Shown: positions 16,059 to 31,131 of the stretch, piece by piece
Layout of the letters: each line of letters begins with the position of its first letter
How positions within the stretch are numbered: the first letter of the stretch is position 1
Assembly: GCA_035560815.1 (NCBI GenBank)
Contig: DATMYR010000067.1
Location: 1-33,577 of the forward strand
Source: Syntrophomonadaceae bacterium
GTDB taxonomy: Bacteria > Bacillota > Syntrophomonadia > Syntrophomonadales > Syntrophomonadaceae
Direction of reading: 5' to 3'
DNA length: 33,577 nucleotides
Notes under the pieces: model-generated
Databases searched by the model: none
The model's input: only the letters and a program-made list of their open reading frames with translations
Told to the model about the DNA's origin: nothing
Program-made: the position numbers and the translations under genes

Positions 16059-18023
16059 ATGAAGTACTGTACCAATTGTGGGCAGCAACTACCGGATGAA
16101 GCGGGGTTCTGTACCAGTTGCGGAACGGCTCAAAAGACAGCAGCCGTTGCCCCACCCCCGGTAGACCCAAGTCCGGTGACAACAATGCCATCTGCGGTGA
16201 ACCCAATTCCAGTGACGAATGCAGTCCCTCCGGCAGATCCCAGTCCGATGACAACGGCTCCAACTACAGCGAATCCGGTTCCGGTAACTACTGCAGCGCC
16301 CCCGTCTAATCCTGAGTCGGTGTCCATCCCTTATCAGGGTTTACCGCTGGGAGGGACGACCTATCCAAATGGGGCGCCGGGCACTCCGTTGGCTACGGCG
16401 GTTCCTCCGAAAAAGAGGCGTACATGGTTATGGGTTACCGGAGGAGTTGTATTGTTTCTGCTCTTAGCATGTGCAGCAGTCTACAGTATGGGGAATTTTT
16501 CGGGGCCCAGATCACCCAGGTTGGCATCTGCCAATACAGAGATGTTCTTGTGCGTGAAACCCAATATGTTTCAGGTCAACAACTTCAACCACCTGAGAGA
16601 CATATATATGGCTGTACCGGAAGTCAAAGATGCGGTAGAAAAGTTTAAAAAGCAGATGCAGGAAGAAAATGACATCGATTTTGACAAGGATATTGATCCC
16701 TGGTTGGGGAAAGAAGCTGCCCTCTTTATGCCCAAGCTCGATAACCAGGATAAGGTGGCCATGGCGATTGAGTATAAGGATGCCGAAAAAGCGAAAGCTT
16801 TTATGGCCAAGGCGGAAAACAATAAAAGCGCCAAACGCGAAACTTATAATGGCATTGAGATTACCACCTATCAAGGGGATGCTTCTATAGCCCTGGTTGA
16901 CAATTTTATGATTATTTCCAGTGACAGGGCTTTGCTGTTGGAGACCATTGACCGCAGCAAAGGAAAAATCAAAGACAATCTTGAATCCAATGCAGACTAC
17001 CAGCGAGTTTTGAGCGCCCTGCCTTCGAACCGGAGCGCGTTCTGGTACGTTAACTTAAAACAGGCCATGGCAAGCAGCAGTAAAGCTGGAATGGGAGACA
17101 TTTCCGGACTGAAAGACCTGTCAATGGCGATGCAATCACTGCAGGGAGCTGGGGCTGCTATTACGCTTGAATCCAATGGGGTGCGCGGGGACTATGTCCT
17201 GGCCTTTGATAAACAAGGAGTTCCCGATTACTTGAAAAACAGTGATAAGGGCAAAGAGGAGCTGAAAGCCACTTTGGATATGATGCCCGAAGAAACCCTG
17301 GGATTTTTGTATAGTTCTTCTCTGGTAAATATTGTACAGGAGAGCCTGAAAAATCCGGGCAGCAATTCCGACCTGGCTCAAATAAAAAGAAGTTTGAATG
17401 AAATACAGTCTGCTACCGGAATCAACGTGCAGACCCAGGTGCTTGATATGCTGCGGGGAGATGCAATTATAGCGGTCACTCCCCACTACGGAGACTTTTT
17501 CGGTCAGAGCGGTGCTCCGGTTAGCATGGTTCTGGCCCTGGGGGTGCAGGACCAACAAGCAGCCACCCGAAATACTGAGGATGTTCTGAGTAAAATGGAA
17601 AAGTTTGATCTGAAAGTGGATAGAAAAACTGTCAATGGCAGCAAGATGTACAATATCAGCCAGCAGTACGGGGGGGATTCTATTAGCCTGGGTTTGGGGA
17701 ACAAGCTTCTCATATTGGGCTCATCCCCAGAGCTTACCAACATAGTTTTGAGTAAGCACACCACCACGCTGGGAGCAAATTCCGACTTCAAGAAAGCATT
17801 TGATCCATTTCCCGGTGCCTGGGCGCCGCAGCTCTATGTGAATACCACAAAGGCTTCCAAAGCGGTGAGTGACAGTCTTACCGGGTCCGACCAGAGTGAG
17901 TACCGTAAACAGGTAATGCCCTGGATGGGACCGATGAAATCAATCTCCGCTGCCGACTCCGCCTGGGATCAAAGCAAAGCCGTGACCCAGGGAGCTTTCT
18001 TTATCCGGATCGAAAAACCGTAA
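16059..18023 (+). CDS. Membrane-anchored protein: N-terminal zinc-ribbon (CxxC ... CxxC), Pro-rich repeat linker, TM helix, large extracytoplasmic domain (DUF3352-like)
   Basis: MKYCTNCGQQLPDEAGFCTSCG zinc ribbon. PVTT-type repeats. Hydrophobic WLWVTGGVVLFLLLACAAVY. GAGCGAGG ribosome-binding site before the ATG. Confidence 0.8.
   Translation: MKYCTNCGQQLPDEAGFCTSCGTAQKTAAVAPPPVDPSPVTTMPSAVNPIPVTNAVPPADPSPMTTAPTTANPVPVTTAAPPSNPESVSIPYQGLPLGGTTYPNGAPGTPLATAVPPKKRRTWLWVTGGVVLFLLLACAAVYSMGNFSGPRSPRLASANTEMFLCVKPNMFQVNNFNHLRDIYMAVPEVKDAVEKFKKQMQEENDIDFDKDIDPWLGKEAALFMPKLDNQDKVAMAIEYKDAEKAKAFMAKAENNKSAKRETYNGIEITTYQGDASIALVDNFMIISSDRALLLETIDRSKGKIKDNLESNADYQRVLSALPSNRSAFWYVNLKQAMASSSKAGMGDISGLKDLSMAMQSLQGAGAAITLESNGVRGDYVLAFDKQGVPDYLKNSDKGKEELKATLDMMPEETLGFLYSSSLVNIVQESLKNPGSNSDLAQIKRSLNEIQSATGINVQTQVLDMLRGDAIIAVTPHYGDFFGQSGAPVSMVLALGVQDQQAATRNTEDVLSKMEKFDLKVDRKTVNGSKMYNISQQYGGDSISLGLGNKLLILGSSPELTNIVLSKHTTTLGANSDFKKAFDPFPGAWAPQLYVNTTKASKAVSDSLTGSDQSEYRKQVMPWMGPMKSISAADSAWDQSKAVTQGAFFIRIEKP
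16155..16315 (+). repeat. In-frame tandem Pro/Thr/Val-rich repeat (about 5 units of A/V-D/N-P-x-P-V-T-T)
   Basis: Repeated GACCCAAGTCCGGTGACAAC / AATCCGGTTCCGGTAACTAC-type units visible at DNA level. Encodes VDPSPVTT / VNPIPVTN / ADPSPMTT / ANPVPVTT. Confidence 0.7.
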
Positions 18024-18052: not shown

Positions 18053-18089
18053 GAGGCGGCCTTAAAGGCCGCCTCCTTTTATAGCACAT
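18053..18089 (+). terminator. Rho-independent terminator (GAGGCGGCCT / AGGCCGCCTC palindrome, then CTTTTA)
   Basis: 10-bp perfect GC-rich stem with a 3-nt loop (TAA) followed by CTTTTATAG (4-nt U run), 30 nt after the stop at 18023. Confidence 0.75.
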
Positions 18090-18181
18090 AGGTGCAAAGA
18101 GCATCCAGAATTATTTATAAATATAGCGAACCTTTTTGTTCTTTGCTGTGTATACCAGTTAGCTATTGGTATGGAAGGAAG

Positions 18182-18730
18182 ATGATTTTGCAGTCCATTA
18201 CCCAGGAACAGGCCGAAGCGATATTCCGAGAATATTCAAGCTATGTTTATCGGGTTGCACTTTTTATATCTCGATCCAGCACCATGGCCGAGGATATCAC
18301 CCAGGAAACCTTCCTACAGGTGTTTCGCAAGTACGGCAGTTATGATGCCACCCGACCTATTGGACCATGGTTGTACAAGATTACTCTAAATATAACCCGC
18401 AACACCTTGCGTAAACAAAAGTGGCTGCAGCTGTTTATGGAAATCCCTGAACAGAAATCCACCCATTCGATTGAGGAGGAAGTACTGAAAAACCAGATAG
18501 ACCAGGAATTGTGGCAAGAAATTAATCACCTTACATTAAAAAGTCGTGAAGTAATCGTACTGCATTACTATTTGGGCTTAAAGCTCATTGAAATTGCCAA
18601 AGTCCTGGATATTCCTCTGGGAACCTGCAAATCCAGACTTCATACGGCAATGAATTCTCTGACCAAAAAACTCCGAGCCAACGATCATTTCATTTCTTAC
18701 CAGGGAGGGGATCAGCATGAAAAGCTATGA
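18182..18730 (+). CDS. ECF-subfamily RNA polymerase sigma-70 factor
   Basis: Region 2 (YVYRVALFISRSSTMAEDITQETFLQVFRK ... GPWLYKITLN) and region 4 (LTLKSREVIVLHYYLGLKLIEIAKVLDIPLGTCKSRL). ATG at 18182 after GGAAGGAAG. 3' end overlaps the next gene by 14 nt. Confidence 0.85.
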   Translation: MILQSITQEQAEAIFREYSSYVYRVALFISRSSTMAEDITQETFLQVFRKYGSYDATRPIGPWLYKITLNITRNTLRKQKWLQLFMEIPEQKSTHSIEEEVLKNQIDQELWQEINHLTLKSREVIVLHYYLGLKLIEIAKVLDIPLGTCKSRLHTAMNSLTKKLRANDHFISYQGGDQHEKL

Positions 18731-19700
18731 ATCCGAAATAGAAGCACTGCTGAATGATAAATTGAATGAATATGAGCCGTCAGTACAGTTCGGCCGGGTT
18801 TGGAGTGAATACCGTAAAAATTATATGAAGGAGTCTGCGATCAGGCGTCTTTTTAAAGCTCCCAGGATTGCAGTGGTGGTTCTGGCAGCTCTTCTCATTA
18901 TTGGTTTTGTCTTGAAACCGCGTGTAGATAAAATCGACTATCCTTTTGTAGATGACCCGAGAGTGATTGGCAGGTGGCAAACTGTAGATTGTGTCAAAAC
19001 CATCGATCAATTTGTCCCGGGACAAAAGGCCCTCCTGGATCAGTTGCCTGTCAATCAACTGGTTTTCGTAAAAGGCGGAAAAATGCTCATGCAAAATGAA
19101 GATACCAATGGCAGCTTGGTGCCCAGTGTTTCTACGTGGACCAAAGGATTGATGATATATATAGTAGATAAAACTGCCAGTCAATATGAGATCAGGGAAG
19201 TCAATGGCACTGCGTATATGTTTCTCGAATGGAAAACCGGGGATTATGTTTATTGGCATCGCAAGCCATCCTATTATGTCCTTGTGAAAATAGATGATCA
19301 TGACTACTCTGACTTCAAGGTTGATGTAAAAGAAGATAAAATTGACTATCCTTTTGAAGACGACCCCCAGTTGCCTGGAACATGGCAGGCTGTCGATGCA
19401 GTATCCAGCATGGATCAGTTCCAGCCTATGGATCAGCAATACCCGGGGGTGCTTTATTTGCAGCGGTTGGATATCAAAGAAAAGGGCAGCATCTCAGAGG
19501 TTACAACGAATGGGCAGAACCCGGAAGGCGATCTTACCTGGACCAGGGGCTTGATAATCTCTAAGCAAGAAAAGACGGCAAGCCATTACGAAATAAAAAA
19601 GTTCGGAAGAGACACTTACTTATTCTATGAGTGGAAAAGTGGAGATTACAAGACAAGGGGAATGAAGCCCAAATACTATGTATTAAAACGGATAACATAG
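18717..19700 (+). CDS. Putative anti-sigma factor: N-terminal cytoplasmic segment, one TM helix, two tandem copies of an uncharacterised roughly 125-aa domain
   Basis: Overlaps the sigma gene. Strong ribosome-binding site (CAGGGAGGGG). TM segment IAVVVLAALLIIGFVL. Repeats begin KIDYPFVDDP / KIDYPFEDDP and end YYVLVKI / YYVLKRI. Confidence 0.75.
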   Translation: MKSYESEIEALLNDKLNEYEPSVQFGRVWSEYRKNYMKESAIRRLFKAPRIAVVVLAALLIIGFVLKPRVDKIDYPFVDDPRVIGRWQTVDCVKTIDQFVPGQKALLDQLPVNQLVFVKGGKMLMQNEDTNGSLVPSVSTWTKGLMIYIVDKTASQYEIREVNGTAYMFLEWKTGDYVYWHRKPSYYVLVKIDDHDYSDFKVDVKEDKIDYPFEDDPQLPGTWQAVDAVSSMDQFQPMDQQYPGVLYLQRLDIKEKGSISEVTTNGQNPEGDLTWTRGLIISKQEKTASHYEIKKFGRDTYLFYEWKSGDYKTRGMKPKYYVLKRIT

Positions 19701-19724
19701 ATCTTGACGAACATGGATGATATG

Positions 19725-19760
19725 AACGGGGTTTCCTGGTGAGACTCCGTTTGTTATTTC
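19725..19760 (+). terminator. Rho-independent terminator (AACGGGG / ACTCCGTT, then TGTTATTTCTG)
   Basis: 7-bp stem including one G-U pair, 10-nt loop, U-rich tail, 25 nt after the stop at 19700. Confidence 0.55.
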
Positions 19761-19953
19761 TGAGAGGTGCAAATTAAACCGAGGGTCATGGATATTTTTT
19801 ATCTGTGGCTACGAACCTTTCCCAGACTTCCTGTGTATAACAGGTAAGTGATTTGGACGGGAGGGCAGATTACACCAGGCTTTTGGGCAAATGCCTATCT
19901 AGCACGAAGCTAGTTTGTATGTATTGGCTTTTTACGAAAGGGGACGATCTCAC

Positions 19954-20835
19954 ATGGAACAAAATGCACCACAAAAAAAACGGTTCACGCTAAAAAGAGT
20001 ACCCAAAATTCTCTTGTTGGTTCTTGCTGCACTGGTGGTCTTTGGTTTTGCTTATGGCCCTGTCATAGACAAAACAGACTATCCTTTTGTCAATGACCCG
20101 ACTGTTATCGGAAAATGGCAGGCGATTGATTTTGTGGAGAAACAGGATCAGTTTACCCCGGAACAAAAGTCCTTTGCCGGGGATCTATATCTTTCCTCAT
20201 TGGTCTTTATTAAGGATGGGCAGATGCTTTTCGCGGCCGATAACGGCAAACTGGGTCCCACTTCATTCACCTGGACCCAGGGCCTGGTGCTCTGTAAACA
20301 AGAGAAAACAGCTAGTAAATATGAGATCCAGGAAATCAATGGCGCTGCTTATATGTTCTTTGAATGGAAGAGCGGAGACTATACCTACCTGCACCGGGCG
20401 CCGCAGTATTACGTCTTAAAGAAAGTGGACAATGATGATTATTCCAACTACAAGCCCACCGCTACCCAGGACAAAATTGATTATCCATTTGTCGATGACC
20501 CCCAGCTGCTCGGTCAATGGCAGAGTGTTGATTTTGTGCCAACTGTTGCTACATTCGTTCCCGGCACTACCAGTTGGAGAGGCGAGCTGTTTCTGAAGCA
20601 AATTGATATCGCTGCACAGGGAGAAATAGCAGAGCTGACTTCTGAAAACCGAAATCCATATCAAGATCTTACCTGGACCAAAGGTTTGATTCTGGATAAA
20701 CAACAGAAAACAGCCAGTCAATATGAAATAAAGGAGTTAAAAGGAGACGCCTATTTGTTCTACCAATGGAAGAGCGGGGATTACATTTACAGGGGAATGG
20801 AACCTCAATATTATGTCTTGAAAAAAGTGAAGTAA
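19954..20835 (+). CDS. Membrane-anchored paralog of the anti-sigma extracytoplasmic region (two more copies of the same roughly 125-aa domain, no anti-sigma N-domain)
   Basis: Short N-terminus, TM helix ILLLVLAALVVFGFAY, then KTDYPFVNDP ... YYVLKKV and KIDYPFVDDP ... YYVLKKVK. ATG at 19954 after GAAAGGGGA. Confidence 0.75.
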   Translation: MEQNAPQKKRFTLKRVPKILLLVLAALVVFGFAYGPVIDKTDYPFVNDPTVIGKWQAIDFVEKQDQFTPEQKSFAGDLYLSSLVFIKDGQMLFAADNGKLGPTSFTWTQGLVLCKQEKTASKYEIQEINGAAYMFFEWKSGDYTYLHRAPQYYVLKKVDNDDYSNYKPTATQDKIDYPFVDDPQLLGQWQSVDFVPTVATFVPGTTSWRGELFLKQIDIAAQGEIAELTSENRNPYQDLTWTKGLILDKQQKTASQYEIKELKGDAYLFYQWKSGDYIYRGMEPQYYVLKKVK

Positions 20836-20954: not shown

Positions 20955-21560
20955 CTATAAGTGATCGGGGAGATTTAGGACTAATTCTTCCAAGGTCTTG
21001 CTCCTGATTAAGGCTGCAGTGATCTTAGGATGTGGATTCCGATAGATAACGGGGTCCTCGCTTTCGCCCAATTCGTTCCTAACCGGGAAAGCTAGGATTT
21101 CCCTTTCAGTACAGAATTCCGCGTAAACCCCTTCCTTATTTCCTCTGGCATCCAGCCTGATCCAGCGGTTCAGACTTCTTAAAAATACAGCATTCAAACC
21201 GTGAATTACCAGGCGAGATGGGTCAAGATCATCGAGAACCAGTCTTTGATAACAAAACCCGGCCGGAATGCGCCAATAACGAAGTAAGGCAGCCAATAAG
21301 TGAGACTTGGCGTAACAAATTCCTTCTTGATAAAGCAGGACCTCGGAAGCCCTGCAGGTGACAATTACACCGCTGCCATCAAACGAATGTCTAATGGTAT
21401 CTCGAACCCATTCATAACAGGATCTAACCAGGGGAATCTCATGGCTACTATCTGCACCTATTTGCTGAGCGATTTTTTGAATGTTCGGTTCGAAGAAATC
21501 AATCATCTCTGAAGACTCCAGATACAGATCCAAATTCTCAATTTCGGGAAAGATAAGCAT
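20955..21560 (-). CDS. Transglutaminase-like (papain-fold Cys-His-Asp) domain protein
   Basis: GICYAKSHLLAALLR core typical of the transglutaminase-like superfamily. ATG with GAAGGAG ribosome-binding site on the minus strand. Confidence 0.7.
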   Translation of the reverse strand: MLIFPEIENLDLYLESSEMIDFFEPNIQKIAQQIGADSSHEIPLVRSCYEWVRDTIRHSFDGSGVIVTCRASEVLLYQEGICYAKSHLLAALLRYWRIPAGFCYQRLVLDDLDPSRLVIHGLNAVFLRSLNRWIRLDARGNKEGVYAEFCTEREILAFPVRNELGESEDPVIYRNPHPKITAALIRSKTLEELVLNLPDHL

Positions 21561-21708: not shown

Positions 21709-22350
21709 CTAAAGGGCTTTCAGCAATGCTGTAACATAACGGTCAAATGCATCCTTATCCTGGAACAGTTGATTCCTCAAGGGAGTGCTTAATTCCAACT
21801 GCACACCCGCTCCTTCTCTATTGCGGTTGCAGATATTGTCCGGGTCTCTCCCCCCAAGGTTGCCGGGTGCCCTCACTACAGAAAATCCGGCCGATTCCAA
21901 TTGCTGTTTCACTTTCTGTCCCAGAGCATTGTCTCGGCCGCCTAAATTGGTCACAGCCTTTTGGGTACCGTAACACCCATGGATAGAAAGAGTTTGGTCA
22001 GATTGAGCGACCATGCTGCATGCGATGGGTTCATCAAAATGGGTGGAAGTAATATGCAGTGGTCTGGGTTTGAGCCCAACAAAGCTATAAAAATCATAGC
22101 CTCCCTGGCTGGCTACGGCCGAGGCCACCTCACTGGTTTCGCGTTCGATGGATCCGCCATGGATGGCGAGTATACTGGTGGACGAACCCCTATCCTGAGT
22201 GATGATTTGATAATCAACATTGGGAGTCTCCCGGGAATGAAGCTGTTCGAAGTTTTTGTATGTATCAGCCCGGGCTTGTTCATAGGAACCGAATGTGATG
22301 AATATAAGAATTAGAAAGGTAAATGAAAACAAGTACGAAATTTTCTTCAA
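21709..22350 (-). CDS. Poly-gamma-glutamate hydrolase family protein (PghP/YjqB-like zinc amidase) with signal peptide
   Basis: SILAIHGGSIE ... LHITSTHFDEP ... LSIHGC ... NLGGRDPDNICNRN ... GVQLELS matches the PghP/UPF0714 family. Hydrophobic N-terminal signal. TTG start after AAGGAGAG. Confidence 0.8.
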   Translation of the reverse strand: MKKISYLFSFTFLILIFITFGSYEQARADTYKNFEQLHSRETPNVDYQIITQDRGSSTSILAIHGGSIERETSEVASAVASQGGYDFYSFVGLKPRPLHITSTHFDEPIACSMVAQSDQTLSIHGCYGTQKAVTNLGGRDNALGQKVKQQLESAGFSVVRAPGNLGGRDPDNICNRNREGAGVQLELSTPLRNQLFQDKDAFDRYVTALLKAL

Positions 22351-27930: not shown

Positions 27931-30723
27931 TTAAATATTCTTCCATTCACCCCGGTTCTGATCAGGAAAGTTCTTACAGCGTATTTCACCCGGTCTGCTG
28001 GCCACCTGGGCCTGGCAAGACTCGGGACGGTTGTTGCTGGCCCAGATGTGGCAGATAGGAATGTTCATTTCTTCAGCCCGGCCTACAATCTGTGCTGTCA
28101 CCGAAGAATACTTCCGGCGATTGCCGTCCCATACTACCATGATCACATCGCTGTGGTCAGCGATATAATGTCCGGTCTTTAAATAGGCTGTTTGGCGGGT
28201 AGGGGAGAGTGGCATCTCAATTACTTCAATAGCACGATTGGACAACCAGTAGTTGAACTCGTTGCGCAATTCAGCTCCCTGAGGATCTGTTCGGTAATCA
28301 TCACTGATGCCGAAATCGTTGATGTATTGTTCCAGGGCGTAAGGCAATACGGCAATGAGTCGAGAGGCTTCTATTTTCAATAATTCACGGGCCACCAGGC
28401 GGTCGGCTCCCAGAGCCAGAGGGGAAAAGACGGTAAGATAGTGCTCGGGGTACTCTTGCTTGATATAGGCAATAGCATGATCCACTGCCTCCTTAAGTAT
28501 ATCCATCTCCTCCGGGTCCAGGTTTACGTGCCCGGTAATTCCTATCCTCAGCATCTCCCGGTGACCCAGATATGTCAAGTCATTGAACTCTTTCATGTTT
28601 ACATGCATCTCAATAATGTGATCGGGGGGCAGGCTGGATAGTTCGTATTTGCGTTTGTCGGCCAAACTGCTCATCTTGAGCAAATTCTCAAGAGAACGCG
28701 ATCCATGGCGATAGCGGGTGGTAAGAAGGAAGGCGTCCAGGACTCCGGAGTCGATTTCAAACTGGCTGCTATGCATGATCTGCGGCGCATTGGACTCAAG
28801 AGATTGGCGCAGGATAAAAGCCCGGCGGATCATATAGAGCCGGTCTTCAACGGTATTGGGGTTGCCGTTGATACCTCGAATGTTGATGAAGGCCCGCAAG
28901 CGGCTGATAAAATCAGGCTTTTTGGCCGCCCGATCAGAGGAACTATCTCTCTCACTGAATTCTTCAAAGGAGTGTCGGGTGGCTCCGGCGAAAACATAGA
29001 TGCCGCCGCCCAGTGGGTGGGGAAGGCCCTGATACGTGAATTCGCCATCCTGCATGGGAGCCAGAAAATAACGGAGCCATCCCAGGGGCTGGCCCTGGCA
29101 GGGAGTATCGAATTCATCCCAAAAAACCAGTGGCATTTTCCCTTTCAGGTTCAGGTCGCGAACCTGGTCAAAGGCGGTCTGCAATTCCTCAGCCGAATCA
29201 AACTGGGAGAGGTTAAAAGTAAGCTGAGCATCCTCGCCAATGCCCAACCCTTTAGCGATTTCTTTAATGACAAATGACTTACCCGCTCCCGGCTGCCCGA
29301 AGACCGCTACGCAGATCGGCTTTTCCGGCCTTTTTAGGCGCAGGTAATCACGCATGGCATTATTAACGCTGCGCACCCCTTCTATTTCCTGACGGTCAGC
29401 ACTGCTCCAGGCTCCCACCGTCTCTACCGGAACATTCAATAAAGCTGCCTGGGGCCCATTCACTACGATGTTTCTTGCCAATTCATTGACCGCCCGAATG
29501 CTCTGAGGGTCTTGCACACAGCACTCTCGGTCCAGGTTTTTCCATAACGCATCTTCCAGAATGGTCCACCTGCCTGGTTTACTGCGAGCGGTATTTTTAT
29601 CATCCACAAAGATGCCCAGTTCACTGACAAGATCCAGGAGAGGCAAACCGGTGGCACTTTTCTTACCGGTTTTCAATTCCTGATAAGCGTAAACCATGGT
29701 CTGGTAAGGAAACTGCAGGTGTTTATGCTCATCGTGCTCCACCACGTCGTAGCCCTTGATATGAAGGAGGCGGGCTAGTTCTAAACCAATGCGGGTGGCT
29801 TCAGTCCAGTCCACGCCCTCCGGGTTTTCTGCCCAGGAGACGGCCAATGCCCCAATAATACAGCTATTGTCACCGATGATCTGACCGGGGAACTGGCTGG
29901 CGAAATCACCTTCTTGCCCCCGACGGTCGAAGATCAGGGTATTGACCTTCTGCCCTACAATGACAGCACCGCTTAGCCCGATGGGGACAATAACCTGATG
30001 GTATTTTATATTTTTTCCTGTGGAATCTGCAAAGGGGCAGCTGGGACTCAATACAGCTTTGACTACTTCCTCCAGCATGCGCTCCCAGGATAAGGAAATG
30101 CCCACCTTAACCGCACAAGCCCGCAGGTCACTCAAGGAGCTGACGATCGTGGTTTTCTGTGCTAGACCTAATTCTATAATCCGGCTGAGCAACGGGTTTT
30201 CCTGTCCGTTGTTATACTGGCCGAGTTTCAGAATGATATGAGCCGGGCTTTTTTCTCCCCCGGTCAAAACTTCAGGCCATCCTGCCGGACAGTGACTAAA
30301 ACCAAGACCACTGTCCTGAATCAGCAGCAGGTCGGGATATCCGCTTAGACGGGCGGAAGGGTAATCCCAGTTACCAGTTTCAAATTCGTGCCATTTCCAG
30401 AGGCGAAAGGAGTTCTGATGCAGTCCCGGGTTGGCAAACTCTTTCCACAAAGTCCAGGAGGTGGTGATGCATCGGTCTTTGGGTCGCTTTAATAGGTCGT
30501 CATCCAATATTGCGCCTTCCACCCGGGCTATCTGGGGCGAGATCATTTCATTCAACAATTCTAGTATCAAGGCCGATCCACCCGGCTTGGAACTGAGCCG
30601 CACCCGGGAATCCTCATCTTGCCGCTGCCAGTAGTAGACGCCCCCGTGTACAGTCACGTCATCGTGGTGAATCCGAAACCAGTCTACGGTGGGATCGCCG
30701 CACACCTGTATCAATAAACACAT
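27931..30723 (-). CDS. Large three-part protein: uncharacterised N-terminal region (about 480 aa), AAA+-like P-loop ATPase, C-terminal SLOG (SMF/DprA-LOG) Rossmann-like domain
   Basis: Walker A VAVFGQPGAGKSF, Walker B MPLVFWDEFD, sensor-like VFAGATR. C-terminal VFSPLALGADRLVARELLKIEASRLIAVLPYALEQ aligns with the DprA/SLOG core (SGLA.GID ... AH ... AL ... IAVL ... GLD). ATG at 30721-30723 follows AAAGGCGGGAGG. The 34-codon ORF-track extension lacks a ribosome-binding site. Confidence 0.8.
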   Translation of the reverse strand: MCLLIQVCGDPTVDWFRIHHDDVTVHGGVYYWQRQDEDSRVRLSSKPGGSALILELLNEMISPQIARVEGAILDDDLLKRPKDRCITTSWTLWKEFANPGLHQNSFRLWKWHEFETGNWDYPSARLSGYPDLLLIQDSGLGFSHCPAGWPEVLTGGEKSPAHIILKLGQYNNGQENPLLSRIIELGLAQKTTIVSSLSDLRACAVKVGISLSWERMLEEVVKAVLSPSCPFADSTGKNIKYHQVIVPIGLSGAVIVGQKVNTLIFDRRGQEGDFASQFPGQIIGDNSCIIGALAVSWAENPEGVDWTEATRIGLELARLLHIKGYDVVEHDEHKHLQFPYQTMVYAYQELKTGKKSATGLPLLDLVSELGIFVDDKNTARSKPGRWTILEDALWKNLDRECCVQDPQSIRAVNELARNIVVNGPQAALLNVPVETVGAWSSADRQEIEGVRSVNNAMRDYLRLKRPEKPICVAVFGQPGAGKSFVIKEIAKGLGIGEDAQLTFNLSQFDSAEELQTAFDQVRDLNLKGKMPLVFWDEFDTPCQGQPLGWLRYFLAPMQDGEFTYQGLPHPLGGGIYVFAGATRHSFEEFSERDSSSDRAAKKPDFISRLRAFINIRGINGNPNTVEDRLYMIRRAFILRQSLESNAPQIMHSSQFEIDSGVLDAFLLTTRYRHGSRSLENLLKMSSLADKRKYELSSLPPDHIIEMHVNMKEFNDLTYLGHREMLRIGITGHVNLDPEEMDILKEAVDHAIAYIKQEYPEHYLTVFSPLALGADRLVARELLKIEASRLIAVLPYALEQYINDFGISDDYRTDPQGAELRNEFNYWLSNRAIEVIEMPLSPTRQTAYLKTGHYIADHSDVIMVVWDGNRRKYSSVTAQIVGRAEEMNIPICHIWASNNRPESCQAQVASRPGEIRCKNFPDQNRGEWKNI

Positions 30724-31131
30724 CCTATCAACCTCCCGCCTTTTGCCCGGTGTTGAAACAAAAGAAGCCTTTCCGCCGGCAGACCGGATTGGAAAGACCC
30801 CATGATTTTCATAATCATGCCCCACCGGCCATGATTGCTTCTCGGTAGCATTTATTATATCATATCAGGGCATCGCTTCCAGGTAACATCTGTTAACGAT
30901 TCGGGCACAGGAGAAAGTCACGAACATATTCGTGGTATAATAAGGGAAAAATGGGATAGGCGTTCGAATAATCATGTATCGCTCGCTGCTTTTGTAGTAC
31001 GATTTGCTCGTCAATCATCCCAAGATTGACGATTTCTACGATAACTGGCGTCTCATTGCATAAATCTTAGGCAGTGTATGAATCACCTGGGCAATAAAGC
31101 AGGCTATAGATGAAGGGATACGATATAAATC

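Follow-up and report, generated by a model that had tools for sequence, protein, structure and literature searches.

Introduction

Extracytoplasmic function (ECF) sigma factors paired with anti-sigma factors are among the commonest signalling devices of bacteria, and for most of them the input is unclear. Here, we examine a putative pair of this kind, carried by a contig of 33,577 bp from a metagenome-assembled genome (MAG) of the Syntrophomonadaceae; this whole contig will be called the window. The locus comprises an ECF sigma gene, an overlapping gene (A) for a membrane protein whose outer part consists of two copies of an unclassified repeat, and, further downstream, a gene (B) for a paralog of A that is devoid of the cytoplasmic part. 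We consider it rather probable that these three genes form a self-contained ECF module, in which A restrains the sigma factor, its barrel-shaped repeats sense the outside, and B, induced by the sigma factor, provides a decoy feedback.

The nearest functional analogues of such a module appear to be the ligand-binding single-pass anti-sigma factors such as RsiV. In Bacillus subtilis, RsiV, the partner of SigV, is a single-pass ECF anti-sigma factor with a ligand-binding outer domain (PMC4183432). As in that system, the sigma gene of the window is followed by an overlapping gene for a protein with its N-terminus inside and a single transmembrane (TM) helix, the sigma operon seems to be autoregulated, and the inducer presumably binds to the outer domain. 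A G-F-A motif of small residues, found where the TM helix ends on the outer side in about half of the A homologs, may also recall the signal-peptidase site of RsiV. Unlike in RsiV, however, the outer domain of A would be a tandem of calycin-like barrels unrelated to the RsiV domains, its cytoplasmic part is limited to about 45 residues without any Pfam anti-sigma domain, and the window adds B, a truncated paralog predicted to be sigma-induced. The RsgI/SigI systems of cellulolytic clostridia, which exist as several paralogs per genome, also combine a single-pass anti-sigma factor with an exchangeable outer binding module, but SigI is not a canonical ECF sigma factor, and RsgI, which senses through carbohydrate-binding modules, has an N-terminal domain from a family of its own; none of these features was detected in the window.

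Two further membrane-to-transcription systems are relevant because the repeat of A is also found in them. The first one is BlaR1/MecR1 with BlaI/MecI: many members of the repeat family have a Peptidase_M56 domain (the L048 and L062 proteins, for instance), lie beside a BlaI-type repressor, and carry the repeat pair where BlaR1 has its sensor domain. In contrast, A has a single TM helix and neither an M56 domain nor an HExxH motif (no M56 match was found in A or B), its partner would be a sigma factor instead of a repressor, and its predicted sensor is a beta-barrel instead of a penicillin-binding fold. The other one is HAAS-PadR, proposed as a membrane signalling pair (PMC11237479), where a cytoplasmic transcription factor is likewise under the control of a membrane protein. 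The cytoplasmic module and the partner found in the window are different, and the window contains neither HAAS nor PadR.

Three differences thus set the locus apart from the known systems: a putative sensor family shared with BlaR1-type and HAAS-PadR proteins, a minimal and unclassified end for the presumed binding of sigma, and a recurrent truncated paralog that is probably sigma-induced. Neither this domain nor any anti-sigma decoy was found described in the literature searched, the coverage of which was incomplete. If these features are confirmed, a sizeable family of input domains (about 1,180 clusters) is without a database entry, and a ligand found for one of its members would inform all three mechanistically different membrane-to-transcription systems. 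A sigma-induced receptor paralog lacking the sigma-binding end and recurring in several genomes would be a new feedback motif; should B act as a decoy, this design has not been described for ECF systems in the same literature. The predicted promoter and the minimal regulon of two genes would furthermore make a reporter assay straightforward.

The sigma factor and its probable membrane partner

The sigma gene (18182-18730, plus strand) encodes a protein of 182 residues with a Sigma70_r2 domain at residues 15-81 (E 2.8e-13) and a Sigma70_r4_2 domain at residues 108-158 (E 1.5e-12), and it scores 92.4 bits against the ECF model TIGR02937, of which the cut-off is 42.9. Only regions 2 and 4 were recovered by the domain search, regions 3 and 1.1 being absent. 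The protein is thus a member of the ECF (group 4) branch of the sigma-70 family, and it remains below the cut-off of every named NCBIfam sigma subfamily (SigW, SigM, SigY, SigV and others). The NCBI product of this gene has 180 residues and probably starts at the TTG at 18188. The orthologs of this sigma factor share 50-65% identity with it.

Gene A (18717-19700, plus strand) overlaps the end of the sigma gene by 14 nt and encodes 327 residues. Its cytoplasmic N-terminus, a putative sigma-binding (anti-sigma) module, corresponds to residues 1-45 (18717-18851) and is followed by a single TM helix at residues 46-66 or so (18852-18914), which is indicated both by hydropathy (Kyte-Doolittle peak of 2.58 at residues 48-66) and by the structural model (helix 41-64). 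The outer part then consists of repeat 1 (residues 71-193; 18927-19295), which we take from the model to be a calycin-like beta-barrel, and of repeat 2 (residues 207-327; 19335-19697), which is modelled with a high pLDDT and is 44% identical to the first one (BLASTP, E 9e-33). A preliminary description of this DNA, made from the sequence alone, had recognized an ECF sigma gene at 18182 and an overlapping gene for a membrane protein with a short cytoplasmic part, one TM helix and two repeats, all of which are indeed present.

The N-terminus of A is peculiar. It consists of two short helices, with I8, L16, F25, V28 and W29 conserved across 95 homologs, followed by a basic stretch, and in the AlphaFold model of A the two cytoplasmic helices lie at residues 5-16 and 25-39, with a low pLDDT (56-67). 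No Pfam domain, of the anti-sigma type or other, is found in residues 1-45 at E-values up to 1. A class I anti-sigma domain (ASDI) is expected to be an N-terminal helical bundle of about 80-90 residues that is recognized by Pfam, with an HxxxCxxC motif in the case of the zinc-binding ones (ZAS). The N-terminus of A corresponds to neither, because its 45 residues or so are too few and because no model recognizes it; moreover, reading the sequence reveals no Cys and no His in the cytoplasmic part, so that the HxxxCxxC motif is absent, as the preliminary description had pointed out.

The association of the two genes is highly conserved. Among the 40 closest loci, a sigma gene lies directly upstream of the A-type gene in 36, either adjacent to it or overlapping it, which answers the initial proposal to survey whether the repeat and the sigma factor co-occur. 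These loci span the Syntrophomonadaceae, Desulfosporosinus, other Clostridia, Calditrichales and Desulfatiglandales. No conserved neighbour other than this pair was found in them, which argues that the sigma factor and A constitute a functional unit. Cultured carriers of the system include Syntrophomonas wolfei subsp. methylbutyratica, Phosphitispora fastidiosa and Desulfosporosinus spp.

The two halves of A do not have the same evolutionary behavior. The strongest indication comes from two sigma orthologs of the Bacillales with 49-53% identity, in Heyndrickxia sp. (L187, 2938-4366) and in Cohnella soli (L188, 2935-4261), where the overlapping gene that follows encodes the same S-F-x-x-V-W N-terminus and a TM helix but an unrelated outer domain. 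This means that the N-terminus tracks the sigma factor while the outer domain is exchangeable. The orphan paralogs detailed below are devoid of precisely the conserved cytoplasmic helices of A. Considering the overlap of the genes, their synteny and the co-occurrence of this N-terminus with the sigma clade, A is most likely the cognate single-pass anti-sigma factor of the sigma factor of the window, and it would thus act as an anti-sigma factor while fitting no known anti-sigma domain family.

The outer domains of the L187 and L188 proteins, like those of L100 and L149, differ from the repeat and are likewise unplaced, with a weak DUF4367-like tail in L100. In another locus, L021 (4746-5969), and probably also in L022, a gene for a 407-residue Peptidase_S8 (subtilase) lipoprotein is inserted between the sigma and the anti-sigma genes; it is a candidate for the site-1 protease of the system.

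A predicted ECF-type promoter upstream of the sigma operon and of gene B

The sigma operon is preceded by a predicted ECF-type promoter at 18128-18154 on the plus strand (GAACCTTTTTGTTCTTTGCTGTGTATA), in which the -35 element reads GAAC(C) and the -10 element GTGTATA. A second copy, with the same spacing, lies upstream of gene B at 19813-19839 on the same strand (GAACCTTTCCCAGACTTCCTGTGTATA). The pattern common to the two sites is GAACCTTT-N12-GTGTATA, and the conserved promoter that precedes the sigma gene and B can be written as GAACCTTTTT-N10-GTGTATA. An AAC-type -35 element is typical of ECF promoters. With this AAC in the -35 element and GT in the -10 element, upstream of its own gene, the sigma factor has what looks like an ECF autoregulatory promoter.

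The motif is also found upstream of the sigma gene in the relatives: GAAC-N14-19-GTNTA is present in 30 of the 33 loci, and its distance to the start codon does not vary; in a fuller form, the motif reads GAACC(T/A)TTT...GTGTATA. The relatives whose anti-sigma factor carries another outer domain are no exception, with GAACCTTTT...GTGTAT in L187, L188, L100 and L149. As the pattern had been derived from the two sites of the window themselves, an independent matrix was used, built from 22 sigma-upstream sites of other genomes only, and the whole window was scanned with it on both strands. The site at 18128 scores 33.9 bits and the one at 19813 scores 22.8 bits, the third site of the window being at 5.0 bits, while the best score over 30 shuffles is 12.9 bits. 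We conclude from these motifs that the sigma operon is probably autoregulated and that B would be the second target of the sigma factor.

Other readings of the motif were rejected. That of a sigma-70 or extended -10 promoter does not hold, since the -35 element is GAAC, since no sigma-70-like promoter is called at 18128 or 19813, and since the motif tracks the sigma clade. The RpoE1/TolB system of Thermoanaerobacter was also considered as a relative and discarded, its promoter (tGTTAC-N16-CGTC) being different. A search of metagenome contigs for the exact promoter pattern brought no new target gene among the 80 stretches fetched out of 106: an ECF sigma gene follows in only six of these 80, and the others look like chance matches or unrelated conserved sequence.

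The repeat domain and its family

The four repeats of A and B share 44-57% identity with each other, close to the 45-55% that had been estimated by eye. None of them finds a significant match in Pfam-A or NCBIfam, the best one being DUF4909 (12 bits, E 0.2, for a cut-off of 25), and a profile of 95 homologs retrieved nothing relevant among the sequences of solved PDB structures. The domain thus remains as unplaced as it had first appeared to be. The AlphaFold2 model of A, obtained with the alignment of the 95 homologs, reaches a pLDDT of about 90-97 in both repeats and consists, for each, of eight strands arranged in an up-and-down barrel and of one short helix. The top matches of this model in a Foldseek search of the PDB are the lipocalin-like proteins of Bacteroides 4gzv, 4i95 and 4iab (E about 2e-3), followed by FABP, avidin and YedD barrels. 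These matches are weak (TM-score of at most 0.47, identity of at most 24%), and the search revealed no close relative among the solved structures.

According to the model, the repeat resembles a calycin/lipocalin-type barrel, at the level of the fold only. Like the lipocalins and DUF4909 (4lqz), it would have eight strands forming an up-and-down barrel, together with a short helix, and it has an invariant G-x-W at the first strand, which we take to recall the lipocalin signature. At the level of sequence, the proteins of the window match none of these families significantly, and the repeats come in tandem, outside the cytoplasm, on signalling proteins. The position of DUF4909 (PF16253) deserves some attention. 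A does not belong to it, with 12 bits for a gathering cut-off of 25 bits, but some three-repeat relatives pass this cut-off by the sum of short matches (41.8 bits for P0315 and 26.1 bits for P0098), which fall at profile positions 28-58 or so, corresponding to the central hairpin, and of which no stretch is significant alone. We thus consider this recurrent signal as a lead towards a possible distant relationship, not as membership. A match to a well-described DUF or functional fold, which had been named beforehand as what would overturn the idea of a novel domain, was looked for, and this resemblance to calycins at the fold level, which entails no specific function, is all that came out.

The family is large. 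A HMMER search of 1.84 billion cluster representatives retrieved 1,183 of them at E-values up to 1e-3 and 453 at E-values up to 1e-30, and a scan of one genome per species gave at least 431 loci. These belong to the Syntrophomonadaceae, Desulfosporosinus, Clostridium, other Clostridia, Elusimicrobia, Planctomycetota, Calditrichales and Desulfatiglandales, the carriers being mostly anaerobes. The repeat always follows a TM helix or a signal peptide and is usually present in two or three copies. In the BlaR1-type proteins, it is found C-terminal to the Peptidase_M56 domain, which is present in 42 of the 69 long representatives, and the corresponding genes, from Clostridium species and Planctomycetota, are located after a gene for a BlaI-type repressor. 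Also in Planctomycetota, repeats are fused to HAAS and a TM helix in genes located after a PadR gene. Among the other settings are repeat-only exported or lipoprotein forms and, more rarely, large exported proteins and fusions, such as P0269, in which the repeats follow a MerR DNA-binding domain.

The repeat is thus the outer part of ECF anti-sigma-like, BlaR1-type M56 and HAAS proteins. Such an outer position in three unrelated types of transducers is what one would expect of an input domain, and it supports a role as a modular sensor, an idea already put forward from the duplicated and diverged copies of the window. Going further, the repeat could be an undescribed family of ligand sensors, interchangeable among ECF anti-sigma factors, BlaR1-type proteins and HAAS-PadR, in which several lineages have independently gained a sigma-induced decoy receptor; we only advance this broader proposal tentatively and judge it to be on the doubtful side.

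In the Elusimicrobia, the organization is different. The operon comprises an ECF sigma gene, a gene for a single-TM protein of 107-111 residues without any Pfam match, and a separate gene for an exported three-repeat protein. This layout was observed in L047, L051, L058, L063, L065, L067, L069 and L075, often with an extra one-repeat protein; the sigma factor is a distant one.

The common repeats also seem to have had consequences on annotation. Anti-sigma-like proteins of 322-333 residues (among them P0047, P0062, P0066, P0071, P0091 and P0092) bear the names 'BlaR1' or 'blaR' in their source annotations despite lacking a Peptidase_M56 domain, those of 327 residues being called 'BlaR1' by JGI, and this name appears to have spread through the C-terminal repeats. 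A two-repeat member of the family is also encoded at positions 149-874 of L043, a contig that is binned as Methanosaeta, an archaeon, which may reflect mis-binning or transfer.

Gene B and the recurrence of orphan paralogs

Downstream of A, a terminator-like hairpin (19722-19754, plus strand) with a stem of 14 pairs followed by TATTTCTG agrees with the terminator that had been proposed between the two genes. Gene B (19954-20835, plus strand) encodes 293 residues. Its longest open reading frame (ORF) begins at a TTG at 19915, but the likely start is the ATG at 19954, which is preceded by AAAGGGGA and gives a product identical to the NCBI protein P0017, of 293 residues. An Rfam search of the leader of about 110 nt, at E-values up to 1, gave no match to a riboswitch or to any other RNA. 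The protein has a TM or signal-anchor helix (at about 20005-20055), preceded by a basic stretch, then two repeats (20068-20430 and 20470-20832, plus strand).

Residues 45-326 of A and 13-292 of B are 54% identical over 282 residues (BLASTP, E 3e-110), the region of similarity having its precise start in the basic stretch that precedes the TM helix (A45/B13). B is therefore equivalent to A without its first 44 residues, that is to say without the cytoplasmic helices, which bears out the earlier view of a TM-anchored paralog with two copies of the domain and no cytoplasmic part. The closest pairs of repeats are A1-B1 and A2-B2, which indicates that the internal duplication came first and that the whole unit of TM helix and two repeats was copied later. 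Being itself a member of the family alignment A1, B retains every one of its invariant columns.

Such orphans, made of a TM helix and two repeats without the cytoplasmic helices and preceded by the same promoter motif, are found in three other genomes. In a member of the Desulfatiglandales (L013), the sigma operon begins with the orphan. In a Bacillota MAG (L036), it lies just upstream of the sigma operon and has its own copy of the motif, and the promoters of the orphan and of the sigma gene share a lineage-specific variant of the -35 element, GAACTAAAAT. In a Clostridia MAG, the orphan (L030) and the sigma operon (L023) are on different contigs, and there are two copies of the motif; these copies are about 120 bp apart (L030, 382-525) and belong to a segment, upstream of the orphan, that is duplicated in tandem. 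This recurrence, together with the ECF-type promoter predicted before B, lends support to the suggestion, made initially from the window only, that B could be a decoy or a co-sensor.

In a distance tree, the orphans of L013, L030 and L036 are each sister to the outer domain of the anti-sigma factor of their own genome (67, 74 and 66% identity, respectively). B, the outer domain of which is likewise most similar to that of A (55% identity), falls within the Syntrophomonadaceae clade but is not the immediate sister of A. The likeness of the orphans to their own receptor can be due either to repeated duplication or to gene conversion; whichever its origin, there is selection to retain a copy that is blind to sigma and similar to the receptor.

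Proposed mechanism and alternative readings

In the module that we favor, the sigma factor would be held at the membrane by A, the N-terminal helices of which would act as a minimal anti-sigma domain, while its two outward-facing calycin-like barrels would be the input module. A signal from outside would release the sigma factor, the simplest candidate being a small hydrophobic or amphipathic ligand accommodated in the barrels or between them, and A would be inactivated, probably by proteolysis, as in other single-pass anti-sigma factors. The free sigma factor would then transcribe its own operon, from the predicted GAACC...GTGTATA promoter at 18128, as well as B, from the one at 19813. B would build up only after induction and would most likely compete with A for the ligand or for the protease, acting as a decoy that damps the response or allows for negative feedback or adaptation.

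Several observations weigh against this scheme. Both promoters are deduced from their motifs. The closest relatives from Syntrophomonas (L001-L008) have no orphan beside the sigma operon, so the orphan must be an optional part of the system and not an obligatory one. Instead of acting as a decoy, B might just as well be an effector or a partner. Finally, the N-terminus of A belongs to no known family of anti-sigma domains and is shorter than a class I domain, and structure prediction brought no confident contact between the two proteins. The latter point comes from P0052, a single ORF of 503 residues that fuses the sigma and the anti-sigma factors, has no second example in the database and probably results from a frameshift artefact in a read-archive assembly: with a sigma-only alignment, AlphaFold gives the fusion a pLDDT above 95 in the sigma part and of 31-37 in the N-terminus of the anti-sigma part. 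These last two observations are also what one would expect if A were not an anti-sigma factor at all but the first product of the regulon, an envelope protein co-transcribed with a sigma factor that is controlled otherwise. We find this very improbable, given the overlap and the strict adjacency of the genes across phyla, the cytoplasmic helix pattern that is conserved in A and dispensable in the orphans, the same N-terminus found beside sigma orthologs with different outer domains, and the presence of this outer domain on two other established types of membrane-to-repressor transducers.

The role of B is the part of the scheme for which the alternatives have more substance. B could be an effector, namely an anchored binding protein that sequesters or shuttles the compound sensed by A, so that the sensor and the protector would share a domain, in the same way as the sensor domain of BlaR1 is related to beta-lactam-binding proteins. 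Its promoter makes B sigma-dependent in all likelihood, it keeps every residue that is invariant in the family, and there is no other local member of the regulon to serve as an effector; besides, calycin barrels typically bind small hydrophobic molecules, going by the fold matches and by general knowledge of the lipocalins, and exported proteins or lipoproteins that consist of nothing but repeats are common among the family members. However, a single anchored binding protein would only afford stoichiometric protection, the orphan is absent from many genomes that have the sigma/A pair, and the orphans are closest to their own anti-sigma factor, TM helix included, which fits competition or pairing with A at least equally well. 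An effector role thus seems unlikely to us, without being negligible. Pairing leads to yet another possibility, in which B would be a co-sensor or partner, its barrels associating with those of A in a hetero-oligomer that stabilizes or gates A, somewhat as in the three-component CnrX-CnrY-CnrH system, where a separate periplasmic sensor controls a small anti-sigma factor. The three-gene layout of the Elusimicrobia, in which the repeats and the putative anti-sigma factor are distinct proteins, favors this idea; A and B have similar TM helices, and the likeness between the orphans and the anti-sigma factors may reflect co-evolving interfaces or gene conversion. Yet A has two barrels of its own, most genomes have no orphan beside the operon, and a protein produced from its own inducible promoter behind a terminator would be scarce before induction, which is a poor fit for an obligatory co-sensor. 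This arrangement favors instead the decoy or effector ideas, and we regard a co-sensor as an even less likely role for B than an effector.

Genomic surroundings

The gene located upstream of the sigma operon (16059-18023, plus strand) encodes 654 residues comprising a zinc ribbon at the N-terminus, a proline-rich stretch, a TM helix and DUF3352. It ends with a terminator-like hairpin at 18053-18075 on the plus strand, with a stem of 10 bp containing eight GC pairs, followed by a T-run. This strong terminator makes the sigma operon a separate transcription unit, and the upstream gene is therefore probably unrelated to it. The exact-match database proteins P0001 and P0017 bear the NCBI locus tags VN426_12040 and VN426_12045.

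The other neighbours in the window are ordinary chromosomal genes: CheB, a GAF-PAS-HD protein, methylmalonyl-CoA mutase together with MeaB, an M24 peptidase, the CCA-adding enzyme, a Band_7 protein and an ADP-ribosylglycohydrolase. An ORF of 964 residues on the minus strand (27931-30825) has only weak matches to P-loop NTPases (AAA, 21.2 bits; STAND-like, E 0.005) and no further recognizable domain. The G+C content of the window is 0.42-0.46 between positions 18000 and 23000, compared with about 0.50 on either side. This stretch contains the sigma gene, A, B and two genes on the minus strand, which encode a transglutaminase-like protein (20955-21560) and a poly-gamma-glutamate hydrolase (21709-22350), and it may be an acquired segment.

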